64,000 nt of DNA from Candidatus Woesearchaeota archaeon (GCA_016180065.1 JACPBY010000001.1:100851-164850), one strand, 5' to 3'. Shown: positions 2 to 62,055, counted from the first letter of the stretch. The notes: generated by a model not told the origin, from the sequence alone. Numbers and translations are program-made.

Positions 2-877
2 TATAAGGACATCTACAAACTTCTTCTTTTTGCAGACAAACTCCCCCTTTTCATTCGGCTCCGGCTTATACTCCGAGCAGACCTCCTCCAGCCTGCAGCA
101 GGAGCATGTGCCGGTAGGGTAATCGCAGGTGTAGCTCTTCTTTGGAGGAGGGAAATTCTCATCCCAGTCAAGGCCGCTCATGCCGTCAATTGAGGAAACA
201 ACGCTGCGGATATCTTTCTCTGTATTGCCGACAAGAGATTGTGCAACAGCCGCAATGGAATTTCCGTCAGCAACAACATCGCGGCCCAGTTTTTCGGTAA
301 AGCTTGGCTTTACCCCGTATTTGATGTTTGGCATTGAGATTGTCACAGGCTCCTTTGCCCTGCCAATAATTTCAGTGCTGCCCTGCTTAACCTCAAAAGG
401 CTCATAGCTGAAAGGAACCTTAACATCGCTTTTTTCATTGAAGCCGGATATGAAACTGCTGAAGGGAGGAGTAAAGAGACCAATAAGGCTTGCTTTCATA
501 GTTTCTTCATAAGGGTAACAGCCGCTGGGATTTACAGGCAGGGGAACGCAGGAGTTCTCGGGAAGGATGTTGTCCTTTGCCCAGTAGCTATGGCCGTTAA
601 TGCCGCCGCAAGGAGGATTAGATGAGAAAAAGCCATTTTTCCCGTAACTGACTGCTGCCTGCTCCAGTGCAAGCCTTGCAGAGTCGTCAACGAACAGCAG
701 GGCTTTCTCGGCATTTGCGTAAGTTTTCAGTATCCTGAACTGCTCTGAGCCGAGGGCAAGCCCTGACCTGAGATGGTAGTCCTTGGTGAACAGGCTGAAA
801 ACCACAAAGCCAAGGAGGAATATTGCCATGATGGTGATGGTGGCAACATAATAGTCAAGCCCCTTCTTGTTCTGCAT
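2..877 (-). CDS. prepilin-like (class III signal-type N-terminus) surface protein; the C-terminal part runs off the left window edge
   Basis: I translated the minus strand by hand from the ATG at 877. It reads MQNKKGLDYYVATITIMAIFLLGFVVF... and stays open to position 2, so it is missing from the track because it has no stop in the window. KKG is followed by about 20 hydrophobic residues. A Cys-rich stretch (CDYPTGTCSCC) lies near the edge. Confidence 0.6.
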   Translation of the reverse strand, partial: MQNKKGLDYYVATITIMAIFLLGFVVFSLFTKDYHLRSGLALGSEQFRILKTYANAEKALLFVDDSARLALEQAAVSYGKNGFFSSNPPCGGINGHSYWAKDNILPENSCVPLPVNPSGCYPYEETMKASLIGLFTPPFSSFISGFNEKSDVKVPFSYEPFEVKQGSTEIIGRAKEPVTISMPNIKYGVKPSFTEKLGRDVVADGNSIAAVAQSLVGNTEKDIRSVVSSIDGMSGLDWDENFPPPKKSYTCDYPTGTCSCCRLEEVCSEYKPEPNEKGEFVCKKKKFVDVLI

Positions 878-912
878 TAACTTATTTGCGTTTGCCATTT
901 GCTTCATTGCCC

Positions 913-1752
913 TCAAGCCTGCGGCAGCCACGACTTGAATTCATGATAATACCTGAACTCGACCTTCGCCAAGCCTGAATTTGCCACGGGAATAGCCTGG
1001 ACAGCCTGGCTTGAAAACCGCCTTGCCGGCTTTCTGGCTGTCCTGCCAGCCAAAACAGCACCACTGGCTTCTTCATACTCCTTGTTCATCTGAGGCACCA
1101 TTATTTCCGGAAAGTACCTGATGCAAAGCTCAAAACCAGACCTGCCGCACAGGTCTTCATTGCTGCTGGGCTTAAGGTCTTCAGGGTCAAAGTCAACGCC
1201 TACCGGCAAGAGATAAAACATAAATTCACCCCTTTTAGGGTAGTCCTTCACAGACCTGAGGAACATAACCGCGGTCACTGCCCTGAAAGCATCCCATACT
1301 TTTCCCCGGTCCTCGCCGGAATAATAAAGCGCATGCAGGCCGCTTATGAACCCAGAGTAATCCTTGCCTTCATAAACCTCAGGATATGCCTCCAGGATTT
1401 CCCTTGCTTTCTTTAAATCGAGCTGCTTTTTCAGTTCGGTAATGTAAGGATTCTTATTTTTGTTTTCTTCCAGCCATTGAATCTTTTCCAAAAGCTCATC
1501 CTTGCCGGGCAGGTCTGTCCTCAAGTAGCTGTCAAGCTGCGCGTCAGCCTTGGCAAAAGAAGCAAGGTTGACATCAACATCGAGGCTTGCCCTTGCCTCC
1601 TTGTTTTTGAGGAACTGCCCCCCGAGGTTCAATAGCAGGATAAGTATTGCAACGCTGACAAAGAAAAGGAGGTAAGACGCTATATCCAGAAGGCCGAACT
1701 GGCCTTTTTTGAAGCGTTCCGAAATATGCTTTGCACTATGTTCTTTCCCCAT
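913..1752 (-). CDS. prepilin-like membrane/surface protein
   Basis: I moved the start to the internal ATG at 1752, 14 nt after the upstream stop. N-terminus: MGKEHSAKHISERFKKGQFGLLDIASYLLFFVSVAILILLL. Confidence 0.55.
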   Translation of the reverse strand: MGKEHSAKHISERFKKGQFGLLDIASYLLFFVSVAILILLLNLGGQFLKNKEARASLDVDVNLASFAKADAQLDSYLRTDLPGKDELLEKIQWLEENKNKNPYITELKKQLDLKKAREILEAYPEVYEGKDYSGFISGLHALYYSGEDRGKVWDAFRAVTAVMFLRSVKDYPKRGEFMFYLLPVGVDFDPEDLKPSSNEDLCGRSGFELCIRYFPEIMVPQMNKEYEEASGAVLAGRTARKPARRFSSQAVQAIPVANSGLAKVEFRYYHEFKSWLPQA

Positions 1753-1765
1753 TCTTTTTTTCCTC

Positions 1766-2305
1766 TCAGCCGGAAGCAATAAAGACCGTCTCAACGACAT
1801 AGCCGGCAGTCCTTCCGGTTGCAGGGTCAAGCACAGCAGCATACCTTACATCACTGTAAACTGCCTTGCTGCCTTCTCCTTTGCCGCCTGCCTGGGCCAG
1901 GGGCTGCCAGCGCTCATACCTGTCCTTGTCAGTATAAATGGCCTGGCCTGGCTGCTGGCCGAGCTGGTAGTCAACAGCAGCCTGCTTTTTCACAAACCGG
2001 CCAACAATCAATGGCTTGTCATTGACGAGCAAGTCCCCGAGCCGTTTGGTGCTGAAACTTTCAGAGTCTATCACGCCAGTGTAAACCCTGCCTGTATCGG
2101 GGTCGGATTTGGAAAAGCCATTCCCTGAATAATAAGCCGCGCTTGCAAGTATTTTTGATTCTGCATCGTAAACATTCGTCCTTGTCATGATAAATGAGCT
2201 GATGACCCAGAAAATCGTGGCAACAACCACGATGGTGTAAATGAACCTGGGCACCCACATAAACATCTTGTATGAGAGGCTGATTCCTCTCTTGCTTTTT
2301 AGCAA
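1766..2305 (-). CDS. prepilin-like membrane/surface protein
   Basis: Track ORF 1766..2353. The likely start is an in-frame TTG at 2305, just after the upstream stop at 2319. N-terminus: (M)LKSKRGISLSYKMFMWVPRFIYTIVVVATIFWVI. Confidence 0.5.
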   Translation of the reverse strand: MLKSKRGISLSYKMFMWVPRFIYTIVVVATIFWVISSFIMTRTNVYDAESKILASAAYYSGNGFSKSDPDTGRVYTGVIDSESFSTKRLGDLLVNDKPLIVGRFVKKQAAVDYQLGQQPGQAIYTDKDRYERWQPLAQAGGKGEGSKAVYSDVRYAAVLDPATGRTAGYVVETVFIASG

Positions 2306-2318
2306 GCTATGCAAATGT

Positions 2319-2804
2319 TTATGCAAATGCCGCATTCCGTTCCACCGCAGCATTGTCTGCCATCACAAAAAGATTCCCATCCCTGTTGCCAAGATGCACG
2401 AGTGCAGGAGCCTCGCTTCCCGGGCTGGGAATTATCCGGTAAGCCATCTTGCTGCCTTCCCTGTTGCTGCCAAAGTAGTCATAGACCCCGGCAACATTAT
2501 CGGATTCACCCAAATTTTTCCTGACCCGCACCATGTTGTCCCTTATTTCAACAACATACTTGTAATCCCTCATGGAGTATGTGTACTCAATATCACCCGG
2601 GGCAGCGTAAACAGCATCCAACGCAAGCGCTATGTCCCTCGCTATGTAATTCTTTTCAAGAGTTTCGCCCTTAAGGTCATTCACAGCCTTGTCAAGGAAT
2701 GTAAGAGTTATAATCGCGGCAAGCACAAGGCCGGCAACAATCATCCCTGTCTGGGTTGTTATTGCCTCTCCCCTTTTCCGGTTAAGCCTGCAAACGCGCT
2801 TCAA
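2319..2804 (-). CDS. prepilin-like membrane/surface protein
   Basis: Track ORF 2319..2849. The likely start is an in-frame TTG at 2804, 5 nt after the upstream stop at 2809. N-terminus: ..LNRKRGEAITTQTGMIVAGLVLAAIITL. Confidence 0.5.
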   Translation of the reverse strand: MKRVCRLNRKRGEAITTQTGMIVAGLVLAAIITLTFLDKAVNDLKGETLEKNYIARDIALALDAVYAAPGDIEYTYSMRDYKYVVEIRDNMVRVRKNLGESDNVAGVYDYFGSNREGSKMAYRIIPSPGSEAPALVHLGNRDGNLFVMADNAAVERNAAFA

Positions 2805-2808
2805 TTTC

Positions 2809-3396
2809 TTATGCCCCTGTGATGCGAAGCTCTGCCCCTGCTTTTCCAAGCCTGACCGACAATGTCTTTAACCCCCTGACATACAGCTGGTTGTCGTTTG
2901 GGGTGTCATCCATGACATTAACAGCGGTTATGGCAGAATACTCATAAAAAAGCTTGCAGTCCCTTCCGCGATTATGTTCAGCGTCAATCTTCAGGCAGCC
3001 CTCATCTATGCATACGCACAGGCAAGACTGGCCGTTGCACTCCGGAGGGCTTTCAGCACCGTTGTTAATCTTCTGGTTCCTGTTAAAGCTCATGAGGAAG
3101 AGGCCCTTGTCCACCGAGAATGAGTGGGGAAGGTTATTTGCCGTTACCATGTTCCCGTTTTCATCCTCAATCTGCGTGCCAAGCATGTCAATCTTGCTCA
3201 TCATGTCAGCAAAGCCCCTGTCTACAGAATAGGCATTCGCTGTTGTTCCCCCAACTGTCAAGCCAAACATCCTGCCACCTATGGGCAATATAACGAAAGC
3301 AACAATCATGGCCGCTATCACCCAGCCGGCAGCCGAGAAGATGACCGTAGGGGTAATAGCGCCTTTCCTGCCCTTAACATTCAAAGCTTCATTCAT
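2809..3396 (-). CDS. prepilin-like membrane/surface protein
   Basis: I moved the start to the ATG at 3396, which overlaps the upstream gene end by 8 nt. N-terminus: MNEALNVKGRKGAITPTVIFSAAGWVIAAMIVAF. The protein contains a Cys cluster (CNGQSCLCVCIDEGC). Confidence 0.55.
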   Translation of the reverse strand: MNEALNVKGRKGAITPTVIFSAAGWVIAAMIVAFVILPIGGRMFGLTVGGTTANAYSVDRGFADMMSKIDMLGTQIEDENGNMVTANNLPHSFSVDKGLFLMSFNRNQKINNGAESPPECNGQSCLCVCIDEGCLKIDAEHNRGRDCKLFYEYSAITAVNVMDDTPNDNQLYVRGLKTLSVRLGKAGAELRITGA

Positions 3397-3664
3397 TGTT
3401 TTCTTCCCTGATAACGCAGCAGTAGAGTTGGCCAGTGCAACCCAAGCCCTTGATTTCCTGGCCATCAGGGCACTGGCTGGGGTTGGCGCCGCCCTGAACG
3501 CACTTATATTTCGGCTCGCACTGGTTCACCTTGTTCACGCTGCCCATTATGTTTCCAACCCCACCCTTGAAAATGGCAATGACTATCAGAATTACAACAA
3601 GCACAACAGCAGCAACAGCCACAGTTTCAATGGACAGGGCTGCGTTTTTCCTTCTCAAAACCAT
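3389..3664 (-). CDS. small type IV pilin-like protein (91 aa)
   Basis: N-terminus: MVLRRKNAALSIETVAVAAVVLVVILIVIAIF. If cleavage follows Ala, Glu sits at +5 as in bacterial T4 pilins. The C-terminal globular part is short and Cys-rich. Confidence 0.6.
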   Translation of the reverse strand: MVLRRKNAALSIETVAVAAVVLVVILIVIAIFKGGVGNIMGSVNKVNQCEPKYKCVQGGANPSQCPDGQEIKGLGCTGQLYCCVIREENNE

Positions 3665-3670
3665 ATGGCT

Positions 3671-4456
3671 TCACCTCTCCAACGCGTCATCAACGCTTAC
3701 GCCGCTTGGCGACGACTTCCGTGGAACCGGCACAGGCTTCACATCCTTTGTTTCATTCAGTTCAGAGACAAGAATATCGTATCTTGCCTTTAAAAGAACA
3801 TACCAACTCTCATAGGAATCAACAGCCAAGCCAAGGTGGTCCTGGACAAACTGCCTTGTCTCAAAGTCATTTATTGGGCCGATTGGAGGGCCGTAAACCC
3901 TAAGCCGCTTTGCGAGATGCCTGGAGCGCTCAGCATGAATCGCTCCAGAAGGCAGGCCAAGACCATAATAAGCCTCTTCAATGACTGCAAGGTTTTCCAT
4001 AATGCCGGCAAGCCCTTTACCGCTGCCAAGCAGCTGCAGGGTTTTGCCATCAACATACTTCCCGGAGAAGTTAAGAAGCTCGTGCTGCTGGATTGCAGTT
4101 TCAAGCTCCAAAGTCATAAGGTAAGGGACAGCCCTCATGGCATTCCCCTCATCAGGAGGGGCGGCAAGCATGACAGCCCAGTCATAGCCTGCAAGGTTTC
4201 TCACATCAACCTGAGCCTCAACATCCATTGGCGAAGTAAACACAAGCTCTTCAGTGGCAAGTGCCGGGATTTCAGGCCTGGCACTTCGCTTGGAAAATTC
4301 AAAAACCGCGAAAACAAGGATGGCAACAGCCAGGATAACCACAGCAGCAACTGCCAAAGCCCTGATGTTCCTTGGCCTGCCTGCACTATACTGGCTGTAC
4401 GGATAATTTCCCTGCGTTCCCTGGTATGCCCCCTGATTCCCGTAAGGCTGGTACAT
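3671..4456 (-). CDS. single-pass membrane protein with a Q/Y/G-rich N-terminal tail
   Basis: 261-aa ORF: MYQPYGNQGAYQGTQGNYPYSQYS...RNIRALAVAAVVILAVAILVFAVF. It sits inside the co-directional cluster and I recognise no family. Confidence 0.55.
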   Translation of the reverse strand: MYQPYGNQGAYQGTQGNYPYSQYSAGRPRNIRALAVAAVVILAVAILVFAVFEFSKRSARPEIPALATEELVFTSPMDVEAQVDVRNLAGYDWAVMLAAPPDEGNAMRAVPYLMTLELETAIQQHELLNFSGKYVDGKTLQLLGSGKGLAGIMENLAVIEEAYYGLGLPSGAIHAERSRHLAKRLRVYGPPIGPINDFETRQFVQDHLGLAVDSYESWYVLLKARYDILVSELNETKDVKPVPVPRKSSPSGVSVDDALER

Positions 4457-4479
4457 TTGTGTGTTCTCCGCGTTAAAAC

Positions 4480-7400
4480 CTAAGATGCTGCTGCCAGCTT
4501 CTTCACATTCCCAAGCTCCATTTTCCTCAAGCCGTTAAAGCTGCTTATGTCTTTGGCATCCCAAAGCAGCTTCTGAACTTCAAGGTCTGTCAAGCCGTTT
4601 TCCCTGAAAGACCTTGCAGTGTCGTATGCCAACCCTGCATTTTCCAAAAATTCATCAGCCTTTGCGTTAAAGATATCATCCTCATCCTGCTCGCTCAATG
4701 CGCCGCTCACTTCGATGTTTGAAGCCATTGGGGCAACTACGCTGCCAAGCCACTCCTGCCTCTCTGTGCTGAAGCCCTCAATGTTAAGGGCGTTAAGGCT
4801 TCCAAGCGCAAACTTCTCAATGCTGGCAACCGGAAATACGGCAGTGCAACCGCGGGAAACATGGTCATCTATCGTGGCTTCAACAAGGACATCGTAGTAC
4901 GAGCACAAGGCCACCTTGCCGTCAGGAACGCTGAACTGCTCAGGGTCCAGCACAGGATTTCCGAGGTCATGGTCGTAGCCGTTCTGGAACATGACAAAGG
5001 CAAGCTCCTCTGAACCGTCATCATTAACAGCAACCACTGGCACAGCAACCTTAATCTCTTCTGATGCCATGAAGTCCTCTGCAGACTGAATGTATGCCTT
5101 TGAAGTGTCAAAGCTGGCTACTGCTGCCGGTGGCAGGTACATCGCAAGCATAGCCCTGAACTGAGGCTCAAGCGCCTTGTTTTTCACGACCTTTGCAAAA
5201 GGAACGGCGTAGTCAACTGCGAATGTATGTGCAGCGCTGACGGCAGTTCCTGCCCCTTCTGCCAGAGGCCTCAAGGCAGCGTAAGCAGTATCAGCAGCCC
5301 TGGCCTTAAGCACAACAAGCTGGTTAAAGAATGAGGGGAAATGCTCGGGCACAAGGGAAACCGAGCCTGTTTCCCTGCCTAGGACAGCAACAAGCCTGCC
5401 TCCCTTGTCATATATTTTTTCTCCCGGGGTTATCAGATTCTTTATGCCTGCTATCTCTGCAACAAGCTCCTTTAGCTCTTTTTCAACATCAGCCCCGCCA
5501 CTTATTCCCTCCCCAAGGCGCTTCTGAAGCACCCTGCGCTTCTTGAACAGCTCTGCAAGGCCCTGCTTTTTCAGCTCATAAGCCTTCACCATCCTTGCGG
5601 AAGCAGGGTCAATGCCTGAGTTAAGCACCCTCACGGCATCTGCATCCTCTGTTATGCCATAAGCCTTTTTGAGATAAACATCAATGAACTTTTTTCGCAG
5701 GTTAGAGTTTGCTTTTCCTCCCTTGGCCAGCAGCTCGCCAATCTCACCAGCCGTAAACTCTTCCCGCTGCACGAGCTTGAGGACATTCTTTATGCTCACT
5801 TTGTCATTGAGAAGCTCAGGAAAGCTATCCATAACTGCCTGATACCTCTCAGCCAGCCTTGGGCCAACATTATCAATGCTGCCAATGGTTGCCCTGAACT
5901 GGTAAGTAACCATGTTCCCATCCCTGGCAAGGGCTACGAGATAAGGCCTTTCATTCTTTCCAGTTGTAAGGATGAACTCAGCCGCAAGCTTCTTCAGCTT
6001 CATGGCCTCCTCCATTGACTTTGCAGCCTCCTCAAAAGCTTCAGGCGAAGCCTTTGCAATCATAACCTGCTTTGCAAGCCTCGGGTTGGTTATGCCGTGC
6101 TCAGGCCCCAGCCAGCCGTTCACAGCCTTTATGACTGCAGGGTCGTCATCGGCAAGCCTGGCAGGATTTTTCAAAACCTTCAGCACCTCATCCTTATTCA
6201 GGCCGCCCTGCAGGAGCTTCAGTGCCATCTCCTGATTCTTGGGCTTTGCAAATACAAAAGGATGCTGCGCAACGAGAGTAGTGTAGGCTTCCTTCACTTC
6301 CTTCACCAGGTCATCATACCTTGCTGGGTTGTTTGCGAGCGAGTTTTCAAACGTCTTCAGGAACCTGACTCTGAGCGTTTTCCCTGTTGCAAGCTCTGCT
6401 GTTTCAAAGCTTTCAAACCCCGCCTTAACCCTGCGCGCCTTCAGCACCCTGATGGGCTGTGCCGCAATTTCGCGCAGAACATTCACAGCTTCTTTTGTCA
6501 ATCCGGTTGCGGATTTACCAAACTCCCTTGCAAGGATTGCCGCATTTTCCCTTGTTATCACAGCCCTGGACTGCGAGGCAGCCTTAACCACGAGTTCCTG
6601 TGACAACGAGCCGGTTTTCCCGGCAAGTTTGACCATCTGCCTGCTCTTCGCAACAAAGCCTGCAGCAGATGCCTTGCCAACGCTCATGAGCGCTTTTGGG
6701 CCGCCAAACATGTAAAACGTAGGGTCACCGAATATGTCTATGGCCATGCCCTTTGACAGCACCAGAGCCCGGTGGCCAAACGATTTCAGGTTGGCAACCT
6801 TGCTTCGGGCATCAACTGCATAGTCTGACTCGGGGAAATAATCAACAACAACATTGTACATCTCAATCGCCATGCCGTCATCGCCAAGCCCCTTAAAGAA
6901 CCCTGCAACCTCATAGTAAATGTCATCAAGGACATCATACTGCCTATCATCGTCTTTCCCTGAAAAGTCGTCGTACTTTGCAATAGCAAGAACAAGCGGT
7001 GTGTTGCTTTGGGCTATGGCATTCTCATCAGCCCACTTTTGCTCTGATACAAACAGCCCCATGCTGGCAGAATAGCCGCCTACCGCGTCAAAATCCTTCA
7101 CAGCCTGGTCTCTTACAGCCTTGTCCTTGCTGCTCATGGCAACTTCCAGCTTTGCCCGGTAAGCCATAAACTGCTTGCCTATGCTGTCATATTTCTCGTT
7201 AAGGTAATAATCCTTGGCCTTGCTCAACCTTAACTCGTTCATCGTGCCAACAACAGAAACAAGGGGCGTGCCCTGCTCAGCGTCAGCCATCAGCTTTTCT
7301 ATCAGGTTGAGCTTGCTTTCCCGGGTCTGAAGCTTTGAGCCTTCAATAAACATCTTTACCGGGTTAATAAGGTCAAAAACAAAGAAGAAACCCCCCATCG

Positions 7401-10400
7401 TGTTTGCCTCTATGTTCTGGTTCATCACCCCTGTTATTACAGAAAGGACAGCGATTGCCTTCTGGTTAACTTCCTGCACAGAATGCGGCTCGCAGCACAC
7501 CTTGCCAACAGGCATTGTTACCCCATAGCCTGCTTTTTCTGCCGGGCAGGCATAAGGCGCAACAGAGCCGCCAGCAGCCCTGCACTCAACATCATACTCG
7601 CACGAATAAATGCAGGGGCTTTTAGTGAACTCCGGTTTGCCATAGTCAACAATCCCGCCGCAAAGGAACGACGACAGCTTTCTGGCTTCTTCTTTCTCTG
7701 CAACTATTGCTGTTGTAGTTCCATCGCTGTTGCATTCAAACACAACCTCCTCGCTGGCCTTGCCAAGGCATCCTACCCATTGCGCCCCAACCTGCATTCT
7801 TTCCCTGCAGTCAGATGAGGCAGCTGGAGTAAAGGAAGGCAAATCCAAAGGCCTGCCGGTAACGTCCACTGCAGAAATTTTTATCGGCTTCGGGGAAGGC
7901 TCAAAAAACAGGTTGTTCCACTCGCGCCTGCAGGTGTTGCCCAGCCAGTCGCACGGCAGGATGCTCCACTCTGTTGAATCAGCCTGCTGCATCCTCAGCC
8001 ACCTTAACGGCTGGGTTGAAGTGATATCAATCACAAGCTTAAACAGCTCTCCAGGCAAAGGCTTCTCAGGAATTGTTTTTGGCTCATCGCCGGTATAATG
8101 GGTTTCGGGCATAATAGGCTGGATGTTTGCTGCCCTGCCGGTTATTTTAACCCAGCCGCGATTTTTCAGGTTGTTTGCAAGGTTCTTCCTGGCCTTGCAG
8201 GTGTCGCCGGTGTCGGGCTTGCAGCTTTCTATTGAAAGGAAGCCTTTCTGCTGTTCTTCGCCAGGATACTGCTTTTTTATGGCAGCCTCATAAAGGGCAT
8301 GGACTGCCTCGGGCCTGCAGCCTTTGCCATCTTTGTAGAGCCTGTCAAAGTCACAGTCGAACAATGCCTTTATTTCCGGGTTGCTGTTATAGATGCCTTT
8401 CGCAACGTCATTCTTCCTGATGAACTGGCGCTTCTTTCCAACAACGTTGCAGCCGTCCTGCATCTTGAACAGTGAGTTTTTCCCGCAGCTTGTGGCATCA
8501 GAATCGTAAAGCTCTATGTAGCGGTCATCGTAAAGGTTTACCGTTGCCGGGGATGGGCCTGAGGCCAGCTCATACTTTATGCTGTCCAAAGCCTTAAGCG
8601 TGAACCTGTGCGAGCCGTCATACGTGCTGTCAAACGGGCCTATCCTGATTTTCTCGTAAACATTACCGCCGGTTGGCGCAACAGAAACAGGCAGCACGTT
8701 CACGAACTGGTCTTCCCTGTCCTGCGCATACCTCCTGTGCTCGTGCTTTATCTCAAAGCTTTTGATGCTTTCAACAGGGCCGCTCAGCACCCAGCTTGCG
8801 CTTATCGTGCCGTCAGGGTTTGGAACAAGCCTGAAATCCTGCACCCTGACTTCAGAAGGCGCCAGGATTATTGGAGTATTAGCACTAGCTTCCTGCCAGC
8901 CTTTTTTGTTAAGCTCTTCAGTCAGCACACGCCTCGCAGAGCAGACTTTGCGCACATCACCTTCAAATCCCGCCTTTCCCAGCTTTAACGCGCTGTCAAG
9001 GTCGCAGTTAGAGCCAGTAACCTTATCATAACTGGCAGAGAAAAACTTCCCCATCAGCTTCTCATACATCAGATTAACAGCTTCAGGAACCTTGCAGTTG
9101 TCCATGCCACTGCCTTTTTCGTAAACGCAGCCAAGCTCATCAAACTTTGCCTTTATGCCGCCATAAATCTCCTCAGCAGATGGCGAAACTTTTTTGATTA
9201 ATGCCTTCTTATTCCCGATAACATCACAGTTTGCTATGCACCAGTAAGATTCAGTATATTGAGTCTTGGGTGGCTGCTGGTAATATTCAATGAACCTTTG
9301 GTTGTAAAGCCCAACGCCTGCCTTTACCTCGTTTGACTTGAAGTTACTGTCTGCATTGCTTGTTGCGGATATCGTGAACTCATGCCAGCCCAGCTGATTC
9401 TCCCTGGGAACTGCATGGGAGAAGGAGCGGGTTGCAGGGCCCTTTTCCAGGCGCTCAGGGGATGATGTTACAGACTTGATTTCATTGCCTTCCTTGTAAA
9501 TAAGCCTTGTAACAACATGATTTATCTCAAAGCCCTTCACGTTGTTTTTGCCGACAGGAACAGACCAGCTCACGGCCATTACGCCATTCTCGTCGCTCTT
9601 CACGGCTGCGCTGTCAAGGTTTGGCTCCCTGTTGTCGAGGTAGCTTGCTATAACCCTGCCGTATTTCTCATTCCTGTCCCCTGCGGAACCAGAGATGGCC
9701 ATCTGCTTCCATCCCAGCTTATCCCGCAGATGCTTTTCCAGGCTGTTGGAGCACTGCGCAAAATCATTTTTTACGTCTGCCTTCACGCTGTCAACAGTCC
9801 ATTTCTTGTTGTCCCACAGCTTTTCAGCAGCGTTCATGAACTCTGTCAGCGCATCGACCTTGGCTTCCTCACAAACCCTTCGGTAGAAGTCAAATGCTGC
9901 CGCCTTCTGGTAAACATCATTGATCTGGGCTGCTGTGCACCCGTTGAAAGTAATAGGCCCAATGCTTCCGTATGCCTGCATTTGCGAAGGGGCAGGGTAG
10001 TCGCAGCACTGGCCGCCATCGCACGTCCTGCCAACCTTACCGCCGTTTTTATTGACAAGCTCATTGTAAATAATCATCACGCCTTCCCTGCACTTTTCCG
10101 GAATGTTGCTCCCAAGTTTCGCTATCAGCTTTGCCCGCTTGCACTCAATCACGTCACAATCGCTGCAGCCACTAACAGGATTGTCAAAGAGCTCAAGATA
10201 GCTTTCGTCGTAGAAGCCAAGCTCAAACCTCTTCACGTCCTTTGTGCTCCCGTCCTTTTTGAGGACAGCAACGAACGTGTACCAGCCCGGCTTGAACTTC
10301 CCGCTGAGCGTGGAAACGCCGCCCATGGCCTGGCTGACTGTTCCACCGCAATCAGCTTCATCAGCAGGGCACTTTACATTAAACTTCTTTTCCAGCTTCC

Positions 10401-10752
10401 CCCCGTTTTTACCTTCGCTTGTGTAAACAAGGTTTTGTTTTTGTTCAGTATTAGGCGGATCCGGCGCCCTGAAATTACCGCTGCCCTCTGCTTTTTCCGT
10501 GTAGCTACTGTGAATCTCAAGGACTGCATTATCCTTGTTTCCGCCAAGCGTTGCAGCAAAGGCAAGGTTGCCGTCTTCGGCTGGCACTGCAGAGAAAGAG
10601 CCTATTTTTGGCTTTCCCCACCCAAGGTCAAAATTGTCAGTTACGGCTTCCATGGCATGAGCGATGGGCCCGCCAGCTACCTTGAGGGCTATGAAAGCCA
10701 CAATCATCATGATTACAGCGCCCTTAAGGTCCATCCAGGGCATTTCAGCCAA
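4480..10752 (-). CDS. giant (2,090 aa) prepilin-like surface protein with three tandem about 250-300-aa repeats and a long helical C-terminal half
   Basis: Uninterrupted 6.3-kb ORF with N-terminus MAEMPWMDLKGAVIMMIVAFIALKV. The repeat markers are FYDESYLELFD..CSDCDVIECK, LYNQRFIEYY..CIANCDVIGNK and LYDDRYIELYD..DGCNVVGKK. Each repeat ends with L..(K/R).GW. Confidence 0.8.
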   Translation of the reverse strand: MAEMPWMDLKGAVIMMIVAFIALKVAGGPIAHAMEAVTDNFDLGWGKPKIGSFSAVPAEDGNLAFAATLGGNKDNAVLEIHSSYTEKAEGSGNFRAPDPPNTEQKQNLVYTSEGKNGGKLEKKFNVKCPADEADCGGTVSQAMGGVSTLSGKFKPGWYTFVAVLKKDGSTKDVKRFELGFYDESYLELFDNPVSGCSDCDVIECKRAKLIAKLGSNIPEKCREGVMIIYNELVNKNGGKVGRTCDGGQCCDYPAPSQMQAYGSIGPITFNGCTAAQINDVYQKAAAFDFYRRVCEEAKVDALTEFMNAAEKLWDNKKWTVDSVKADVKNDFAQCSNSLEKHLRDKLGWKQMAISGSAGDRNEKYGRVIASYLDNREPNLDSAAVKSDENGVMAVSWSVPVGKNNVKGFEINHVVTRLIYKEGNEIKSVTSSPERLEKGPATRSFSHAVPRENQLGWHEFTISATSNADSNFKSNEVKAGVGLYNQRFIEYYQQPPKTQYTESYWCIANCDVIGNKKALIKKVSPSAEEIYGGIKAKFDELGCVYEKGSGMDNCKVPEAVNLMYEKLMGKFFSASYDKVTGSNCDLDSALKLGKAGFEGDVRKVCSARRVLTEELNKKGWQEASANTPIILAPSEVRVQDFRLVPNPDGTISASWVLSGPVESIKSFEIKHEHRRYAQDREDQFVNVLPVSVAPTGGNVYEKIRIGPFDSTYDGSHRFTLKALDSIKYELASGPSPATVNLYDDRYIELYDSDATSCGKNSLFKMQDGCNVVGKKRQFIRKNDVAKGIYNSNPEIKALFDCDFDRLYKDGKGCRPEAVHALYEAAIKKQYPGEEQQKGFLSIESCKPDTGDTCKARKNLANNLKNRGWVKITGRAANIQPIMPETHYTGDEPKTIPEKPLPGELFKLVIDITSTQPLRWLRMQQADSTEWSILPCDWLGNTCRREWNNLFFEPSPKPIKISAVDVTGRPLDLPSFTPAASSDCRERMQVGAQWVGCLGKASEEVVFECNSDGTTTAIVAEKEEARKLSSFLCGGIVDYGKPEFTKSPCIYSCEYDVECRAAGGSVAPYACPAEKAGYGVTMPVGKVCCEPHSVQEVNQKAIAVLSVITGVMNQNIEANTMGGFFFVFDLINPVKMFIEGSKLQTRESKLNLIEKLMADAEQGTPLVSVVGTMNELRLSKAKDYYLNEKYDSIGKQFMAYRAKLEVAMSSKDKAVRDQAVKDFDAVGGYSASMGLFVSEQKWADENAIAQSNTPLVLAIAKYDDFSGKDDDRQYDVLDDIYYEVAGFFKGLGDDGMAIEMYNVVVDYFPESDYAVDARSKVANLKSFGHRALVLSKGMAIDIFGDPTFYMFGGPKALMSVGKASAAGFVAKSRQMVKLAGKTGSLSQELVVKAASQSRAVITRENAAILAREFGKSATGLTKEAVNVLREIAAQPIRVLKARRVKAGFESFETAELATGKTLRVRFLKTFENSLANNPARYDDLVKEVKEAYTTLVAQHPFVFAKPKNQEMALKLLQGGLNKDEVLKVLKNPARLADDDPAVIKAVNGWLGPEHGITNPRLAKQVMIAKASPEAFEEAAKSMEEAMKLKKLAAEFILTTGKNERPYLVALARDGNMVTYQFRATIGSIDNVGPRLAERYQAVMDSFPELLNDKVSIKNVLKLVQREEFTAGEIGELLAKGGKANSNLRKKFIDVYLKKAYGITEDADAVRVLNSGIDPASARMVKAYELKKQGLAELFKKRRVLQKRLGEGISGGADVEKELKELVAEIAGIKNLITPGEKIYDKGGRLVAVLGRETGSVSLVPEHFPSFFNQLVVLKARAADTAYAALRPLAEGAGTAVSAAHTFAVDYAVPFAKVVKNKALEPQFRAMLAMYLPPAAVASFDTSKAYIQSAEDFMASEEIKVAVPVVAVNDDGSEELAFVMFQNGYDHDLGNPVLDPEQFSVPDGKVALCSYYDVLVEATIDDHVSRGCTAVFPVASIEKFALGSLNALNIEGFSTERQEWLGSVVAPMASNIEVSGALSEQDEDDIFNAKADEFLENAGLAYDTARSFRENGLTDLEVQKLLWDAKDISSFNGLRKMELGNVKKLAAAS

Positions 10753-10909
10753 ACCTCATTTCCCTGATGAAGCCAAGGTCAACCACGCCAAAGGCTGCGG
10801 CTGCGAAAACCAGAAGCATAATCAGGATGCCAAGGGCAATAATCCAGCCACCCAGATGGCCCCAGGTAGTCGCTTCCTGACCCTTTTTACCAATGGCAAA
10901 ACTCCTCAT
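10745..10909 (-). CDS. small prepilin-like protein (54 aa)
   Basis: Track ORF 10745..10948. I prefer the ATG at 10909 because a TATA-like box at 10963-10972 is too close to 10948. N-terminus: MRSFAIGKKGQEATTWGHLGGWIIALGILIMLLVF. Confidence 0.45.
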   Translation of the reverse strand: MRSFAIGKKGQEATTWGHLGGWIIALGILIMLLVFAAAAFGVVDLGFIREMRFG

Positions 10910-10962
10910 GCGCACACCCTTTTTCTTTAATAACACCTGACGGCTCACTAACTTAAAAACAC

Positions 10963-10972
10963 TATATAAATT
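10963..10972 (-). promoter_or_regulatory. TATA-like box internal to the pilin-like cluster
   Basis: The minus strand reads aatttatata in the only gap longer than 50 nt in the cluster (10910-11002). It lies upstream of the small gene and the giant gene. Confidence 0.4.
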
Positions 10973-11002
10973 CTTTGCCGTTCCGCAGCCTGACTTGTGC
11001 CC

Positions 11003-11971
11003 TTACCGCTTCTCCAGCTCTGCAGGATAATAGGTGCAGCCAATCTCGTTCTTGAGCATGCTGCCAGAATTCACACCGTTCCACTCCCTCAGGACTGTGA
11101 ACGCAGCCCATTCAGGAACATTATCACGGCTCGTAAGGAATGAAACAGCTTCTGACATGCCGTAAAAAACACCGAATGCTGCAGCGCCTGCACCAAGCAC
11201 AACCCAGCCGGGAGGGCCTGCAACAACACCTATGCTTGCCACGGCAAGCATAGTCCCGCCTGCTGCCAAAGCCCCGCCGCCAACCCCTATTACCAGCCCT
11301 GCCTTGCCCTCTGCTGTTTGAGCTGTCAAATGCCTCGCCACTTCCGCTATCTGGTCCTCGCCTTTTGCATAAACAAAAATCGAGGCATACGTTCCTTTTT
11401 TCAGCTCGCCTTTCTCCACAGTGCCGAGCAAGGGCGTGTTTTTCAAGGTGCCAAGCACCTGCTCAGCTTTTGATGTTTTAAAGCTTGAAAGATAATCAAT
11501 GTAAAGCCTTCCGCTCCTGTCAGGAATCTCCTCATCCATGAGATATTGACTAAGCCCTGCAACGGGCTCGCCAGCCCTGATATCAATGAATGCGCAGACA
11601 GTGCAATAGGTCGCTTCGTCGATGAACAGGTTGAGCTTGCCCTCGCCAAAATTGTTCCAGCAGTCATACATGGCATTGGCTATCCTCCTCTTCGCCTTTT
11701 CCTGAGCAGATGGAGTGCTGGTTTTCGTTATCTTGATGTCCTGCGCAGGGCACTCTATTGCAGCAGGAAACTCAAACCCCCTGATGTGGAGATTGGCATT
11801 CCTCTGAACGCTCCCCTTGCATGCGGTTGCATCAGCAGAGCTCTCGCTTGCCTCAGCAACGCCCCCCATGAATTTGAATGACAGCAATATCATCGCAACG
11901 ACAACAGCAAGAAGCACGATTGTTTCGTTCTCAAGGCCTTTCTTGTTGAGCCTCTTAAGCACAGGCAGCAT
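11003..11971 (-). CDS. prepilin-like protein, paralog of 11973..13040, with an extra Gly/Ala-rich C-terminal membrane segment
   Basis: The ATG at 11971 directly follows the upstream stop. N-terminus: MLPVLKRLNKKGLENETIVLLAVVVAMILLSF. It shares the motif DCWNNFGEGKLNLF..CTVCAFI with its neighbour. Confidence 0.6.
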   Translation of the reverse strand: MLPVLKRLNKKGLENETIVLLAVVVAMILLSFKFMGGVAEASESSADATACKGSVQRNANLHIRGFEFPAAIECPAQDIKITKTSTPSAQEKAKRRIANAMYDCWNNFGEGKLNLFIDEATYCTVCAFIDIRAGEPVAGLSQYLMDEEIPDRSGRLYIDYLSSFKTSKAEQVLGTLKNTPLLGTVEKGELKKGTYASIFVYAKGEDQIAEVARHLTAQTAEGKAGLVIGVGGGALAAGGTMLAVASIGVVAGPPGWVVLGAGAAAFGVFYGMSEAVSFLTSRDNVPEWAAFTVLREWNGVNSGSMLKNEIGCTYYPAELEKR

Positions 11972-11972
11972 C

Positions 11973-13040
11973 TCAGTAAAGCCTCTTGCAGGTGCTGGCA
12001 AGCTCCGAGGACGGGACAAGGCGGACAGTGGCAGGGAAAACTTTCAAGGTGCCTGTCTTGCCAAGCTCCACCTTCCAGTTTGTAAGGTCAACTTCATTTC
12101 CTCCATCAACAACCTTCCCAAACACAAGCCCGGGATTTTCACCTTCCCTGTAGCCCGGAACCGGCTTGCCATACCCTGTGTTGCAGCCTATGTCGGCAGC
12201 GTCTCCTCCTGTCACAGGGTTTTTGTCATAGCCGCCAAGATAGCAGTCAACGATGCCCGCATTTGGAGGCGCGGTGGAACCGGTTGAGTATTTCCCAAAA
12301 AAATACCTGTTTTGGGACTGGGTTGACAAGGCGAACACAACGCTGTAAGGCTGCGGCACTCTCTTTCCAGTCTTATCAGCATAAAACTTTATGGCCTTGC
12401 CATCAAACGCGCTTATGTATCTAGTAAAGTCCTGGGGCTTGTGGACTGAGTTTTCAAGGAAATATTCCATGTACGTTTTCTCATCCTTCGGAGGAATTGC
12501 TGTTGCGGCAGCATAGGAGTAAAGGTTCGTGAGCTCAACAGCATCGCCTTCATCAACAAAGTCCTGGCTGGGGATTATCTCAGAGCAGACGATGCAGGCT
12601 GTTCCATCCTTGGCATCAACTGACTGCTGCAGCTTTATCTTGCCCTCGCCAAACATGTACCAGCAGTCCTTCATGTTCTTCATGATGAGCTCCTTAAGCT
12701 GGTTCTCCCTCTCCCCAGTATCGGTGCTGAGCCGAATTTTGTCATCATACCTCTTTATGCTCTTCTTTGTTATTTCGCTGAAAATAGTCTTGCAATTAAA
12801 CTGGAAAGGGCTGTCCATGAATGTATAATCCATCACCCAGAAGTCCTTTGTGAACTGAAAGCTTGCGAGGGCAACGCTCAGCTTGCACCCTTCAATAAGG
12901 TCTTTTGTCTGGGCAGCAGCAATGTAAGGCTTGGTCATTGAAAAGACAAGGAAGAACACTGCCACAGCTGCTACTGCACTAACTACCTCTCCTTGGGCAA
13001 GCCCTTTCTTTTCCTTTTTTCCAACAGGGCTTCCTGGCAT
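11973..13040 (-). CDS. prepilin-like protein, paralog of 11003..11971
   Basis: N-terminus: MPGSPVGKKEKKGLAQGEVVSAVAAVAVFFLVF. It carries the motif DCWYMFGEGKIKLQ..CIVCSEI. Confidence 0.65.
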   Translation of the reverse strand: MPGSPVGKKEKKGLAQGEVVSAVAAVAVFFLVFSMTKPYIAAAQTKDLIEGCKLSVALASFQFTKDFWVMDYTFMDSPFQFNCKTIFSEITKKSIKRYDDKIRLSTDTGERENQLKELIMKNMKDCWYMFGEGKIKLQQSVDAKDGTACIVCSEIIPSQDFVDEGDAVELTNLYSYAAATAIPPKDEKTYMEYFLENSVHKPQDFTRYISAFDGKAIKFYADKTGKRVPQPYSVVFALSTQSQNRYFFGKYSTGSTAPPNAGIVDCYLGGYDKNPVTGGDAADIGCNTGYGKPVPGYREGENPGLVFGKVVDGGNEVDLTNWKVELGKTGTLKVFPATVRLVPSSELASTCKRLY

Positions 13041-13041
13041 G

Positions 13042-13188
13042 TCAGCAGATGCCTCCGCTCCACGTGCCGGTTTTGCACATTATGCTCCTCAGAACCATGA
13101 AAATGATGACAATCGCCCCAATGACAACGACGCTTCCAAGCACGGTCTCTGACAGGATAGCTGTGCCTCTTTTCTTACTGCACACCAT
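13042..13188 (-). CDS. mini prepilin-like protein (48 aa), first gene of the cluster
   Basis: Not in the track because it is shorter than 60 aa. My translation is MVCSKKRGTAILSETVLGSVVVIGAIVIIFMVLRSIMCKTGTWSGGIC. Its stop lies 1 nt before the next ATG at 13040. Confidence 0.45.
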   Translation of the reverse strand: MVCSKKRGTAILSETVLGSVVVIGAIVIIFMVLRSIMCKTGTWSGGIC

Positions 13189-13209: not shown

Positions 13210-13217
13210 TTATATAA
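13210..13217 (-). promoter_or_regulatory. TATA-like box for the pilin-like gene cluster
   Basis: ttatataa lies about 25 nt upstream of the ATG at 13188, so the transcript would be leaderless or nearly so. Confidence 0.45.
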
Positions 13218-13238: not shown

Positions 13239-13583
13239 TTACAGCTTTCTTATTCTTATGCGTCCGTCTTTAACCACTACCAGCTTGCCTTCAACATCAA
13301 GCTCCCGCATGGTTTTAGTTAGGATACCAAATCTCTCCTCAGGGTCAGTGCTGGCAGTTCTTAGAAGGATAAACCCCGGGGCTGGCTTCCTTCGCCTGAC
13401 AATCAGTTCGCCGAAGTCTTTATCATCAGAAATCAGGATTCTGCCTTCGCTTTCTGCTCTGGCAAGGACTGCCTCATCACTTGCAGCGGGCATAATATCT
13501 CCTGCAAATATAACATCATGTTTAGCGCCTGCTAGCATGTCAGCCAGCCTTTTACCTGTGCTTTCATCAACCAGAAGCCGCAT
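13239..13583 (-). CDS. PIN-like toxin (DUF5615-type)
   Basis: MRLLVDES...HDVIFAG...SDEAVLARAESEGRILISDDKDFGEL...PGFILLR matches the DUF5615 pattern. It overlaps the upstream DUF433 gene. Confidence 0.7.
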   Translation of the reverse strand: MRLLVDESTGKRLADMLAGAKHDVIFAGDIMPAASDEAVLARAESEGRILISDDKDFGELIVRRRKPAPGFILLRTASTDPEERFGILTKTMRELDVEGKLVVVKDGRIRIRKL

Positions 13584-13827
13584 AAGCTGCCTTTTTCTCC
13601 TCTATTTCAGGTATGATGTCCTCTCCCCTAACGAGGCTTGCAGAATACTCAACTGCTGCTCTCACATCATCCTTAGTCAGGTTTGGGTAGTCCTTGAGTA
13701 TTCCTTCAGTAGTCATACCATCAGCTATTCTTTGGAGGATTGCGTCTACAGGCACTCTAGTGCCTTTGATTACAGGCTTCCCAACCATTATTTTTGGGTC
13801 CACAATTATCCTTTTCATGAAGTCCAT
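13567..13827 (-). CDS. DUF433 family antitoxin-like protein
   Basis: IIVDPKIMVGKPVIKGTRVPVDAILQRIADGMTTEGILKDYPNLTKDDVRAAVEY is a typical DUF433 signature. Confidence 0.75.
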   Translation of the reverse strand: MDFMKRIIVDPKIMVGKPVIKGTRVPVDAILQRIADGMTTEGILKDYPNLTKDDVRAAVEYSASLVRGEDIIPEIEEKKAAYAASG

Positions 13828-16343: not shown

Positions 16344-17249
16344 CTAAAGCTTCTCAGCCATCAGCGCGCCATTCATGTCAAATATGTCGCTCTCTGCCGC
16401 CTTTAAAAGAAAAAGGACTGGAAGCTCTTTTTTGGCTGTCTTCAGCAGCAGGCTTTCAAGTTCAGCCTTAAGCGAGTAATGCCTCTGGGCAAAACAGGCT
16501 ATTGCCCCAATGCCGAATTTTCCATGAACCACCCTGAATTGCCTGAAAAAATCAGAAACATTTGCATAAGCAGAGAAGACATCCTTGCTTAATTGCAGCC
16601 TGTTGCCGGCACAATAGCCGCATATGTCCCTGAAGCTGTCTCCAATCTTCTCAAGCTGCTCAACAAGGTAGTAAGACGGCGCTGCCCTTTTGACAACCCT
16701 GTGGCCTGCCATGTTAATTGCCCTCCTGCAGAAATCAGCGTACTTGTTGACTTCGAAGTCCATGGATGCCGTAAAATCCAGCTTTTCCCAATTTTTTGCC
16801 TTAATGTTGCTCAGGCCCTCCTGTGCCATCGTATCTATGACAAAAATCATTTTCCTGAACAAGCTTTCAAACTCTTCAGGTATTATGTGGGAAACATTCC
16901 TTACAAGAACCCTGTTTTTCCCCTCTTCAACTGATTCGAACCCAACCAATTCGCTTAAAACTTCTTTTATGGATGAAAGCTCATCGGGAGACTGGAATCC
17001 AACCTCAAACTCATCATAACCTGCCTTGTAAAGAGCGCCAAGAACCCTCTTGACCATCAGCCCTGCCCCGGAAACATCCACAACAGCCCTGCCCTGCCTT
17101 GATTCTGAAGCAGGATAAACAACCAGCCTTGGACCAGCCTCCTCAACTTCCAGCCCATCGCCCTTTTTCAGCCTGTGCTGCCTAAGCCATGCAGATGGCA
17201 GCGAAATGACGTATGTCTCAGTCCCCAGCTGTATCAGCTTTCTCAGCAT
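16344..17249 (-). CDS. AbrB/SpoVT-domain plus PhoU-domain regulator (archaeal PhoU-like)
   Basis: The N-terminus KLIQLGTETYVISLPSAWLRQHRLKKGDGLEVEE is a swapped-hairpin AbrB-type motif. The C-terminal helical region is PhoU-like. Confidence 0.75.
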   Translation of the reverse strand: MLRKLIQLGTETYVISLPSAWLRQHRLKKGDGLEVEEAGPRLVVYPASESRQGRAVVDVSGAGLMVKRVLGALYKAGYDEFEVGFQSPDELSSIKEVLSELVGFESVEEGKNRVLVRNVSHIIPEEFESLFRKMIFVIDTMAQEGLSNIKAKNWEKLDFTASMDFEVNKYADFCRRAINMAGHRVVKRAAPSYYLVEQLEKIGDSFRDICGYCAGNRLQLSKDVFSAYANVSDFFRQFRVVHGKFGIGAIACFAQRHYSLKAELESLLLKTAKKELPVLFLLKAAESDIFDMNGALMAEKL

Positions 17250-17271: not shown

Positions 17272-17715
17272 CTAAGGGCTTATCTGCGAATTCTTCATGG
17301 TGTTAAGCACAAGCACTGTATTGGTGCCTTCGACAAACTCATAAGTCTGAATTTTCTTCAAAAAAGCATCAAGGCCCCTCCTGTTCCTGAACTTCGCGAT
17401 GACAACGCTGTCAAAGTCCCCGGTAACGTCAAAGACGGCAGCAACGGAAGGATGGTGGGCAATCTTCTTTTCAACCTCAAACAGCTTCCCCTTGGATATC
17501 TTCATGTTTATAATTGCATCAATATCGTAGCCAAGCTTTTCATAATCGAGCACGGCAGTATATCCCCTGATTACCCCGGCCTTCTCAAGCTTCCTGGAGC
17601 GGTTAATGACTGTTGCCACAGAAACGCCAATCGCAGAGGCAATCCGCCTGTAAGACAAGCGGGAGTCTGCAAGCAGGACATCCAGCAGCTTCCTATCCGT
17701 TTCGTCGATTGCCAT
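17272..17715 (-). CDS. Lrp/AsnC family transcriptional regulator
   Basis: DETDRKLLDVLLADSRLSYRRIASAIGVSVATVINRSRKLEKAGVIRGY forms the HTH, followed by an RAM/ACT-like C-terminal domain. Confidence 0.9.
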   Translation of the reverse strand: MAIDETDRKLLDVLLADSRLSYRRIASAIGVSVATVINRSRKLEKAGVIRGYTAVLDYEKLGYDIDAIINMKISKGKLFEVEKKIAHHPSVAAVFDVTGDFDSVVIAKFRNRRGLDAFLKKIQTYEFVEGTNTVLVLNTMKNSQISP

Positions 17716-20153: not shown

Positions 20154-20198
20154 AAATATATAGCTGGGTTTGATAATTTGCAATTATGCGTGTAAAAT

Positions 20199-20361
20199 CT
20201 GATTTTCCACCAATCTCTGATTGGTGGTATCTGTTTGTGGAAAATCAGGCTCTGAGCAAACCGACCCGAGCGAAGCGAGCATGCAAATCGGCAGCAGCCG
20301 ATTGCACATTCCGCAATGCGGAATTGCGCCACCGGTCTTTGACCGGTGGTGGTCGGTTTGC
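20199..20361 (+). other. cluster of strong hairpins: a 12-bp stem-loop followed by a 106-nt four-helix element
   Basis: ctgattttccac (20199-20210) pairs with gtggaaaatcag (20237-20248). gcaaaccgacc (20256-20266) pairs with ggtcggtttgc (20351-20361) and encloses three hairpins. The strand is not determined. Confidence 0.4.
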
Positions 20362-61869: not shown

Positions 61870-62055
61870 GTCCAACCTATACGCACCTCTTCTTTTCTTT
61901 CTGTTGCTTTCTGAAAGCACTGGTATAAATACATTTCTGTATTTATGCACACGTTTGGCGGGATTGGTTTGTTGCAATTCATCACAACAATCTTTAAATA
62001 TGACCTCATATTGTGTCTTATGACATCATACTTTGAAGGTTTTGGAGGTGTTGGG

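Follow-up and report, generated by a model that had tools for sequence, protein, structure and literature searches.

What is made by the run of twelve genes that reads leftwards from position 13188 to the edge of a 64-kb stretch of Candidatus Woesearchaeota archaeon DNA (GCA_016180065.1, JACPBY010000001.1:100851-164850; the whole 64,000 nucleotides (nt) are called the window here)? A first-pass annotation had described the genes as co-directional, had noted prepilin-like starts in eleven of the products, and had suggested that the locus may be a multi-subunit surface filament or attachment apparatus with class III signals. All twelve open reading frames (ORFs) are present where it placed them, tightly packed on the minus strand from 13188 to past the left edge of the window, and they are numbered g1 to g12 from right to left. 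The locus is probably a structural operon, standing by itself, of a type IV filament (pilus or pseudopilus) system specific to DPANN. By analogy this system would be closest in logic to the archaeal Epd or bacterial Tad type, with formal membership of either unproven. The filament reading is supported by the conservation of the N-terminal motif, by the architecture of the modelled g9 protein, by the linkage of an ATPase and a polytopic membrane protein to two homologous clusters (L022 and L037), and by a peptidase gene of the A24 family near the first of these.

The products of ten genes (g1–g4 and g7–g12) begin with a class III-type leader followed by an N-terminal hydrophobic helix, and those of g5 and g6 do not. 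The eleven junctions listed in the first-pass annotation are all present; with an arrow marking the junction they are KKRG↓TAILSE (g1), EKKG↓LAQGE (g2), NKKG↓LENET (g3), GKKG↓QEATT (g4), DLKG↓AVIMM (g5), RKNA↓ALSIE (g7), GRKG↓AITPT (g8), RKRG↓EAITT (g9), SKRG↓ISLSY (g10), FKKG↓QFGLL (g11) and NKKG↓LDYY (g12). In ten families [KR][KR][G/A] and a single transmembrane (TM) helix are kept among orthologues, while the flanking residues vary. The eleventh case, DLKG of g5, is not shared by its orthologues, and the signal peptide of this protein is of Sec type; g6, which had been singled out as the only gene lacking the motif, does lack it, and is joined in this by the g5 orthologues. Glutamine is found at +1 in the window only in g4 and g11, and is common there in g7-like relatives. 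Under a strict rule, which asks for [KR][KR][G/A] within 45 residues and for an uncharged hydrophobic window of 17 residues no more than 12 residues after it, the motif is found in 7 of the 12 locus genes, compared with 2 of the 42 other genes of the window; g3, g7 and g10 are looser cases that miss the rule only on details. Across 20 non-redundant metagenome loci a [KR][G/A] plus TM start is present in 137 of 178 genes inside the cluster and in 44 of 221 outside it, several of the 44 being an upstream extension of the same gene run. The motif is more than chance.

The main rival explanation holds that the proteins are uncleaved signal anchors (N-in, C-out) forming a Cys-rich surface or host-contact complex with no type IV pilus polymerisation, KKG being only a positive-inside flank and helix cap. 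A positive-inside flank alone does not explain why G or A after the basic pair is kept in ten unrelated families, from loci ranging in GC content from 0.29 to 0.55.

Gene order, which had been proposed as something to check in related genomes, is conserved. When the ORFs of the six closest loci (L007, L008, L009, L011, L012 and L013) were searched with the twelve window proteins by phmmer, the cluster families were recovered in the same order. The run from g1 to g12 keeps its order in L007, L008, L011, L012 and L013. A metagenome scan with a narrower sub-alignment (A4) gave 53 loci, and the 20 non-redundant ones mentioned above were analysed with family hidden Markov models. In these, homologues of g2, g3, g4, g7, g8, g9, g10 and g12 are co-linear over a GC range of 0.29–0.55, in the order (g7)n-g2-g3-(g4)-...-g8-g9-g10-x-g12, with about 18 motif-type genes in a row in some loci (L028, L046). 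The superfamily founded by g2 is large; among 1.84 billion representatives its profile finds 1,893 clusters (counted at 50% identity) with E<=1e-3, of which 367 reach E<=1e-10. Homologues of g2 and g9 come from metagenome-assembled genomes (MAGs) named Candidatus Woesearchaeota or 'Nanoarchaeota', and a genome scan located the operon in three groundwater Woesearchaeota MAGs and in one contig binned as Methanosarcinales. The latter (L013, CAZBPE010000011.1, labelled 'uncultured Methanosarcinales archaeon') carries a complete DPANN-type operon; the label probably reflects mis-binning, or possibly a host-symbiont pair.

Type IV pilus machinery is found beside homologous clusters. On a 144-kb contig (L022) a 763-amino acid (aa) ATPase of family PF00437 (E 1.7e-15) is encoded directly upstream of the cluster on the same strand. 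Its nearest solved relatives are Archaeoglobus fulgidus GspE (9e-29), the Tad ATPase CpaF (7e-25) and the archaellum ATPase FlaI (1e-18). The ATPase is followed by a membrane protein with ten predicted TM segments, which has 716 aa in L022 and 711–716 aa across loci. L037 has this pair ahead of its cluster too, and in the short, partial locus L039 the membrane protein is present. At 4.7 kb past the L022 cluster there is a Peptidase_A24 gene (PF01478; 288 aa, six TM segments, E 3.3e-15, scoring 56.8 bits, above the gathering cut-off of 26.5) containing the motifs ...CDIKTKEVPD... and ...GGGD.... The RPA and YdjM genes follow the cluster in L022 as they do here, which makes L022 syntenic with the window. 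The direct, co-directional linkage of a CpaF/FlaI-type ATPase and a 10-TM protein in L022 and L037, with an A24 peptidase near the L022 cluster, argues against a complex of uncleaved anchors.

Just upstream of the ATPase both of these loci have three paralogues in tandem, 5-TM proteins about 180 aa long (L022 2649-5225; L037 2842-5389), accompanied by two coiled-coil proteins on the opposite strand. The tandem and coiled-coil proteins have no significant Pfam match, and may be further parts of the machinery. The 5-TM proteins were also considered as peptidases, for which there was no supporting match.

The best pilin-like candidate, judged from its model, is g9 (2319-2804, minus strand, 161 aa). 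A TTG start at 2804 is used because it fits the orthologues (158–164 aa) better than the 141 aa of the gene caller, and the RKRG junction requires it. The TM helix runs into a conserved amphipathic helix (GETLEKNYIARDIAL.LDAVYAAPGD) and then a beta domain. The AlphaFold2 model, based upon 27 sequences, has a mean predicted local distance difference test score (pLDDT) of 81.6, and comprises one 58-residue helix (residues 10–67) with a kink at the invariant G46, followed by eight beta strands. The TM segment would thus be the first half of a long helix that enters the globular part, as in type IV pilins, and the continuity of the helix in the model again speaks against simple anchors. The corresponding model of g2 (pLDDT 74, predicted template modelling score 0.76) has a helix from 17 to 60 and then an alpha/beta domain.

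A number of findings weigh against a filament, and on some of these the membrane-anchored alternative is built. A Foldseek search of the PDB with the g2 and g9 models gave no match below E 0.5, so the globular folds are not assignable and the comparison with the pilin fold is architectural only. The structural test suggested in the first-pass annotation thus gave a pilin-like architecture for g9, with no significant PDB fold match for g2 or g9. Pfam and NCBIfam scans of the window's cluster proteins and ten g7-like relatives matched no pilin or class III signal model (PF04021, PF07790, TIGR02537 etc.), the best sub-threshold family matches being TadE (E 0.023) and XpsH (E 0.022); none of the twelve cluster proteins matches Pfam, NCBIfam or the PDB. 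Searches of the PDB by sequence with the family profiles of g2, g9 and g7 recover no solved pilin, and alignment of the g2 and g9 families with hhalign reveals no common N-terminal domain. As the first-pass annotation had remarked, an assembly ATPase, platform protein and prepilin peptidase are absent from the window, here in any frame, and they are also absent from the flanks of the six closest loci. Homologues of the L022 ATPase, 10-TM protein and A24 peptidase are found in no frame of the window or of L001–L016, and the ATPase is linked in only 2–3 of about 20 longer metagenome loci. The 716-aa 10-TM protein has no T2SSF match, and indeed no Pfam or PDB match at all.

The signals themselves are looser than canonical class III signals. 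The hydrophobic stretch had been said to follow the junction directly; in fact 2–14 mixed or polar residues, sometimes charged (g10), stand between G/A and the hydrophobic core, for example G↓LAQGE-VVSAV and G↓ISLSYKMFMWVPRF-IYTIVVV. In the register of the family alignment g7 of the window has N at -1 and not G/A. Among 137 full-length representatives of the wider g2/g3 superfamily [KR][KR]G precedes the TM helix in 57% and [KR]G in 63%, so that a basic-G sequence is present in only 57–63%. Lastly, A-x-A-like motifs, which could be signal peptidase I sites, are retained behind the TM helix in g2, g3 and g8. Uncleaved anchors would accommodate the variable spacing, the lack of a pilin family or fold, an operon lying away from any ATPase in the window, the six close loci and most metagenome loci, and the extra membrane segments of g3-type proteins. 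Set against the conserved glycine or alanine, the linked machinery and the g9 helix, this explanation seems to us unlikely, though it is the strongest of the rivals. The filament reading of the first-pass annotation is therefore retained in part. The conserved motif, the g9 architecture and the linkage in L022 and L037 uphold it indirectly; g5 is not pilin-like, g3 is unlikely to be a filament subunit, and no pilin family or fold was matched.

In another explanation all the products are ordinary Sec-secreted proteins with classical signal peptides cut by signal peptidase I, giving soluble or S-layer-associated proteins, and KKG is the n-region style of the lineage. For g5 (4480-10743, minus strand, 2,087 aa) this is clearly how the protein is built. 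Its orthologues begin MAADLSWGQL..., MPGLSINQ... or MAWEAIKK..., and so have lost the K-G motif; the h-region is followed at around residues 28–32 by a conserved A-H/Y-A cleavage-like site, with small-x-small junctions in six orthologues (AHA↓M, AYA↓A, AHA↓A, AHG↓A, AYG↓A and AYA↓F, sites assigned by eye). Because the K-G motif is lost and A-x-A kept, g5 looks like an ordinary Sec substrate. The protein contains 38 Cys, among them those of at least two repeated modules (CxxCDVI at about residues 193 and 501); its C-terminal half is rich in helix, and it has no Pfam or PDB match. Its length varies from 600 to 2,090 aa across lineages (600–684 aa in L007, L012 and L013), and two samples differ by a single residue, 2,086 against 2,087 aa. 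On its sequence g5 is predicted to be a Sec-exported protein, presumably an adhesin or distal component. The neighbouring g6 (3671-4456, minus strand, 261 aa) has a Q/G/Y-rich N-terminal tail, one TM segment and an outside domain. It is present only alongside a giant g5 of about 2,050 aa or more (the window, L008 and L011), and from this distribution is taken to be an accessory protein of giant g5.

Extension of the Sec explanation to the rest of the operon meets difficulties. Small residues do occur at -3/-1 after the TM helix in g2 (V-x-A↓QD), g3 (x-E-A↓) and g8 (A-N-A↓Y), and another large surface protein of the window (57331-61977) also begins with KRRG and a TM helix. The putative c-regions of g2 and g8 are however unusually long (9–14 residues), there is no A-x-A site in g7, g9, g10, g11 or g12, and g1 and g4, of 48 and 54 aa, would keep almost nothing after such cleavage. 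The TM helix of g9 is part of a 58-residue helix modelled with high confidence, and the linkage to a type IV pilus ATPase and an A24 peptidase would be left unexplained. Sec export thus seems correct for g5. It is conceivable in the case of g2, g3 and g8, and fails for g1, g4, g7 and g9–g12; as an account of the whole locus it is improbable.

The remaining products are described from the upstream end, all on the minus strand, and their outside domains are in general Cys-rich. The smallest is g1 (13042-13188, 48 aa), which has one TM helix and a short tail with the conserved pattern C-x-T-G-x-W-x-G-G-x-C, and has orthologues in L007, L008, L011 and L012; it is a candidate for a pilin lacking a globular domain, of Flp/Epd-like kind. 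The paralogues g2 (11973-13040, 355 aa) and g3 (11003-11971, 322 aa) follow. In g2 KKG and the TM helix lead to a Cys-rich extracellular alpha/beta domain with eight conserved Cys (CWYMYG...CxVCSE), which the Cys-rich domain of g3 resembles. Proteins of g3 type have in addition a Gly/Ala-rich hydrophobic region near the C-terminus (about residues 222–275 in g3), which makes g3 unlikely as a filament subunit; it is probably a membrane-embedded component. In g4 (10745-10909, 54 aa) the start GKKG↓QEATTWGHLGGW and the TM helix are followed by a conserved tail ending ...IRNARFG. It always lies immediately before g5, and homologues are also found in L017, L018, L020, L022 and L024.

The second half of the operon opens, after g5 and g6, with the small pilin-like g7 (3389-3664, 91 aa), comprising RRKNAALSIETV, a TM helix and a six-Cys knot ending in CC. 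Elsewhere the g7 family has 1–4 copies per cluster, with the consensus M.KK[G/A]↓QGISINVIIIAAIAL and then a small domain ending in CC. The g7-like start M.KK[G/A]↓QGISINVIII is reminiscent of the class III signal (QxSxE) found in the Epd pilins of Methanococcus, a likeness that serves as a lead and not as a test. Next come g8 (2809-3396, 195 aa), with a TM helix and a Cys-containing domain, and g9. In g10 (1766-2335, 189 aa) a 14-residue amphipathic stretch (..MxWIPRF..) separates SKRG from the TM helix. The junction and TM helix are present in g11 (913-1752, 279 aa), and g12 (<2-907) adds a 12-Cys outside domain. Only 302 aa of g12 lie inside the window; the full protein of 379 aa is seen in L001, a 22-kb Logan contig with identical genes, in which g12 is complete and the end of the cluster is visible, making it the last gene.

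With gene starts chosen as those best fitting orthologues, the spacings from g1 to g12 are 1, 1, 93, 1, 23, 6, -8, 4, -17, 13 and 5 nt. The earlier figure of 1–14 nt is roughly right, save for one gap of 23 nt and two overlaps (-8 and -17). The single 93-nt gap, between g3 and g4, does hold a TATA-like box as had been noted; read from the sequence, this is a BRE (B recognition element)/TATA-like box AAAGAATTTATATA (AAAGAA-TTTATATA) at 10963-10970 on the minus strand. The position of the gap is kept in L007 and L008, where it measures 76–78 nt. A second box of the same kind, AAAACCTTATATAA (AAAACC-TTATATAA), is located at 13210-13217 on the minus strand, about 22 nt upstream of the g1 ATG. The upstream box is presumed to be the promoter of g1–g3 and the box in the gap an internal promoter of g4–g12, and the pair would suggest two transcription units.

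The run had been followed only to the window edge; it is now bounded on both sides, by a DUF433/DUF5615 pair upstream of g1 and by an RPA-like OB-fold gene and YdjM downstream of g12. The upstream genes (DUF5615 at 13239-13583 and DUF433 at 13567-13827, both minus strand) form a toxin-antitoxin-like pair on the same strand as g1 and 50 nt from it. Short Logan contigs extend the window by RPA and YdjM on the left and by a GAPDH-like gene on the right, and no machinery gene came into view in them. The RPA-like gene after the cluster lies at 13891-15509 in L001, 8784-10318 in L007, 18372-19900 in L012, 14600-16047 in L022, 13758-14801 in L040 and 19124-20113 in L043. This neighbourhood is kept between lineages of GC 0.29 and 0.50, and YdjM follows next wherever checked (L001, L007, L012 and L022).

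These boundaries bear on whether the locus could be a surface module derived from a mobile element or virus, and not a cellular apparatus. The toxin-antitoxin-like pair directly upstream might suggest this, as might an IS605 OrfB (Cas12f-like TnpB) gene that interrupts the cluster in L009 between g3 and g4 (6662-7879, minus strand). Yet the cluster keeps its place beside RPA and YdjM in very distant lineages. Genes for an integrase, capsid or terminase are absent, as is any break in composition, and housekeeping genes lie all around. A mobile or viral origin was rejected as highly improbable.

How does a filament operon of this kind compare with known systems? The Epd system of Methanococcus maripaludis (archaeal type IV filament system 1) is an 11-gene cluster with many pilins and with separate stand-alone pilin loci (bioRxiv 10.64898/2026.04.22.720090). 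Its major pilin has no globular domain, and such pilins are described for Epd/Tad systems (same source). The Epd pilus is EppA-dependent, and the system has been reported in DPANN (bioRxiv 10.64898/2026.04.22.720090, PMC3875500, PMC4390842). The present operon is similar in being a multi-gene cluster of many different pilin-like proteins with leaders ending K/R-G, often with Q at +1 and, some five positions in, a polar residue; g1 and g4 are tiny, as fits pilins lacking a globular domain, and its location would correspond to that of the stand-alone pilin loci away from the machinery. It differs in having no peptidase, ATPase or platform gene, where the Epd cluster has an EppA-like peptidase and two platform genes; instead of two platform genes, relatives have linked to the cluster one 10-TM polypeptide of about 715 aa that does not match T2SSF. 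Nor is there a match to PF04021 (DUF361) or another pilin model, and the operon has ten distinct families together with a Sec-exported giant protein.

Similarity to the bacterial Tad/Flp system (CpaF, TadB/C, Flp, TadE/F) lies in the CpaF-like ATPase (7e-25) linked to homologous clusters, the very small pilin candidates (48–54 aa), a similar G↓xxxxE/T-type junction and the presence of several minor pilin-like proteins. Here the system is archaeal, with no secretin or TadZ-type components, and has many more subunit families that are larger and Cys-rich. Makarova, Wolf and Koonin (2019; PMC6393860) have read DPANN 'dark matter' runs of signal-peptide genes beside an ATPase and TadB/C as divergent pilins (their Fig. 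2A). The L022 and L037 arrangement matches the description given with that figure, a likeness at the level of description; relative to the islands described there, the window version is detached from the machinery. In concept the operon also recalls the minor-pilin/PilY1 tip complex of bacterial type IVa pili and the modular pilins (Streptococcus sanguinis PilB, PMC8179133), in which several pilins of low abundance initiate or cap the filament and display a large adhesin. The difference is that g5, having a Sec signal, is not itself a pilin, and the proteins here resemble neither PilY1 nor the minor pilins in sequence or fold.

Multi-pilin clusters of the Epd kind and predicted DPANN pilin islands are thus already known, and the locus is not outside known biology; the earlier claim that so many pilin-like subunits put it well outside the usual archaeal type IV pilus loci was overstated. 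What is new is the defined set of families, the conserved order across wide lineages and the size of the g2/g3 superfamily, together with the apparent separation from the machinery in Woesearchaeota and the distinction now proposed between pilin-like subunits and a Sec-exported giant protein.

We infer that the apparatus would work as follows. [quoted passage not shown] A CpaF/FlaI-like ATPase acting on a polytopic platform protein would then pull the helices from the membrane and stack them into a filament. The small g1, g4 and g7 are candidates for the shaft, and the larger Cys-rich g2, g8, g9, g10, g11 and g12 for minor or tip subunits, while g3, with its extra hydrophobic segments, probably stays in the membrane. 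Exported separately via Sec, g5 could be a variable, Cys-rich distal or adhesive component presented by the apparatus, with g4 and g6 as its likely partners. Since the ATPase, platform and peptidase are not beside the operon in this Woesearchaeota lineage, they would act in trans.

Elsewhere the window encodes a housekeeping set that identifies it as archaeal chromosome: Nop56/58, fibrillarin, an ATP-dependent DNA ligase, RFC, PCNA, XPD, HerA, RNase J, several aminoacyl-tRNA synthetases and an archaeal type FBPase. ARAGORN found no tRNA gene in the 64 kb. Divergent from the operon is an 812-aa protein (13899-16337, plus strand) with a weak APH/kinase-like match (27.7 bits), and L008 has an 821-aa gene in the corresponding place (4775-7240, minus strand). 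It is followed by a 301-aa protein (16344-17249, minus strand) whose N-terminal domain is of AbrB/MazE type and which resembles a 304-aa MazE-domain protein near the operon in L012, and by an Lrp/AsnC regulator (17272-17715, minus strand). The HerA/DUF87 ATPase (18002-19585, minus strand) was considered as a Ced/Ted-like motor and rejected, as it is not conserved beside the operon elsewhere and is not of the T2SSE family. There are two further large surface proteins, a 623-aa DUF11 protein (20186-22057, plus strand) and the 1,548-aa protein at 57331-61977 (minus strand), which besides its KRRG start has a C-terminal TM segment and no Pfam match.

The filament would likely serve to attach the ultrasmall cell to a host or surface. 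Pili-like appendages have been imaged by He et al. (PMC7906910) on ultrasmall cells in groundwater that yielded MAGs with the orthologous operon. A bolder proposal, which is speculative and as a whole unlikely to hold, is that of an undescribed host-contact organelle found throughout DPANN, a type IV filament derivative of at least ten subunit families (up to about 18 in some lineages), none of them represented in protein-family databases, that presents a hypervariable giant Sec-exported protein. Were it correct, Woesearchaeota and related ultrasmall archaea might use the structure to grapple, and even penetrate, their hosts, and lineages detached from the ATPase might possibly assemble it with no dedicated motor.

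DPANN archaea are abundant uncultivated episymbionts whose molecular means of host attachment are largely unknown, and all the cluster proteins are annotated 'hypothetical' despite some 1,900 clusters in the g2/g3 superfamily. The link to machinery of the type IV pilus kind makes the operon a testable candidate for the pili on ultrasmall groundwater cells. Its families provide markers by which the apparatus may be found in metagenomes, and an obvious candidate for what determines host specificity is the variable giant g5.

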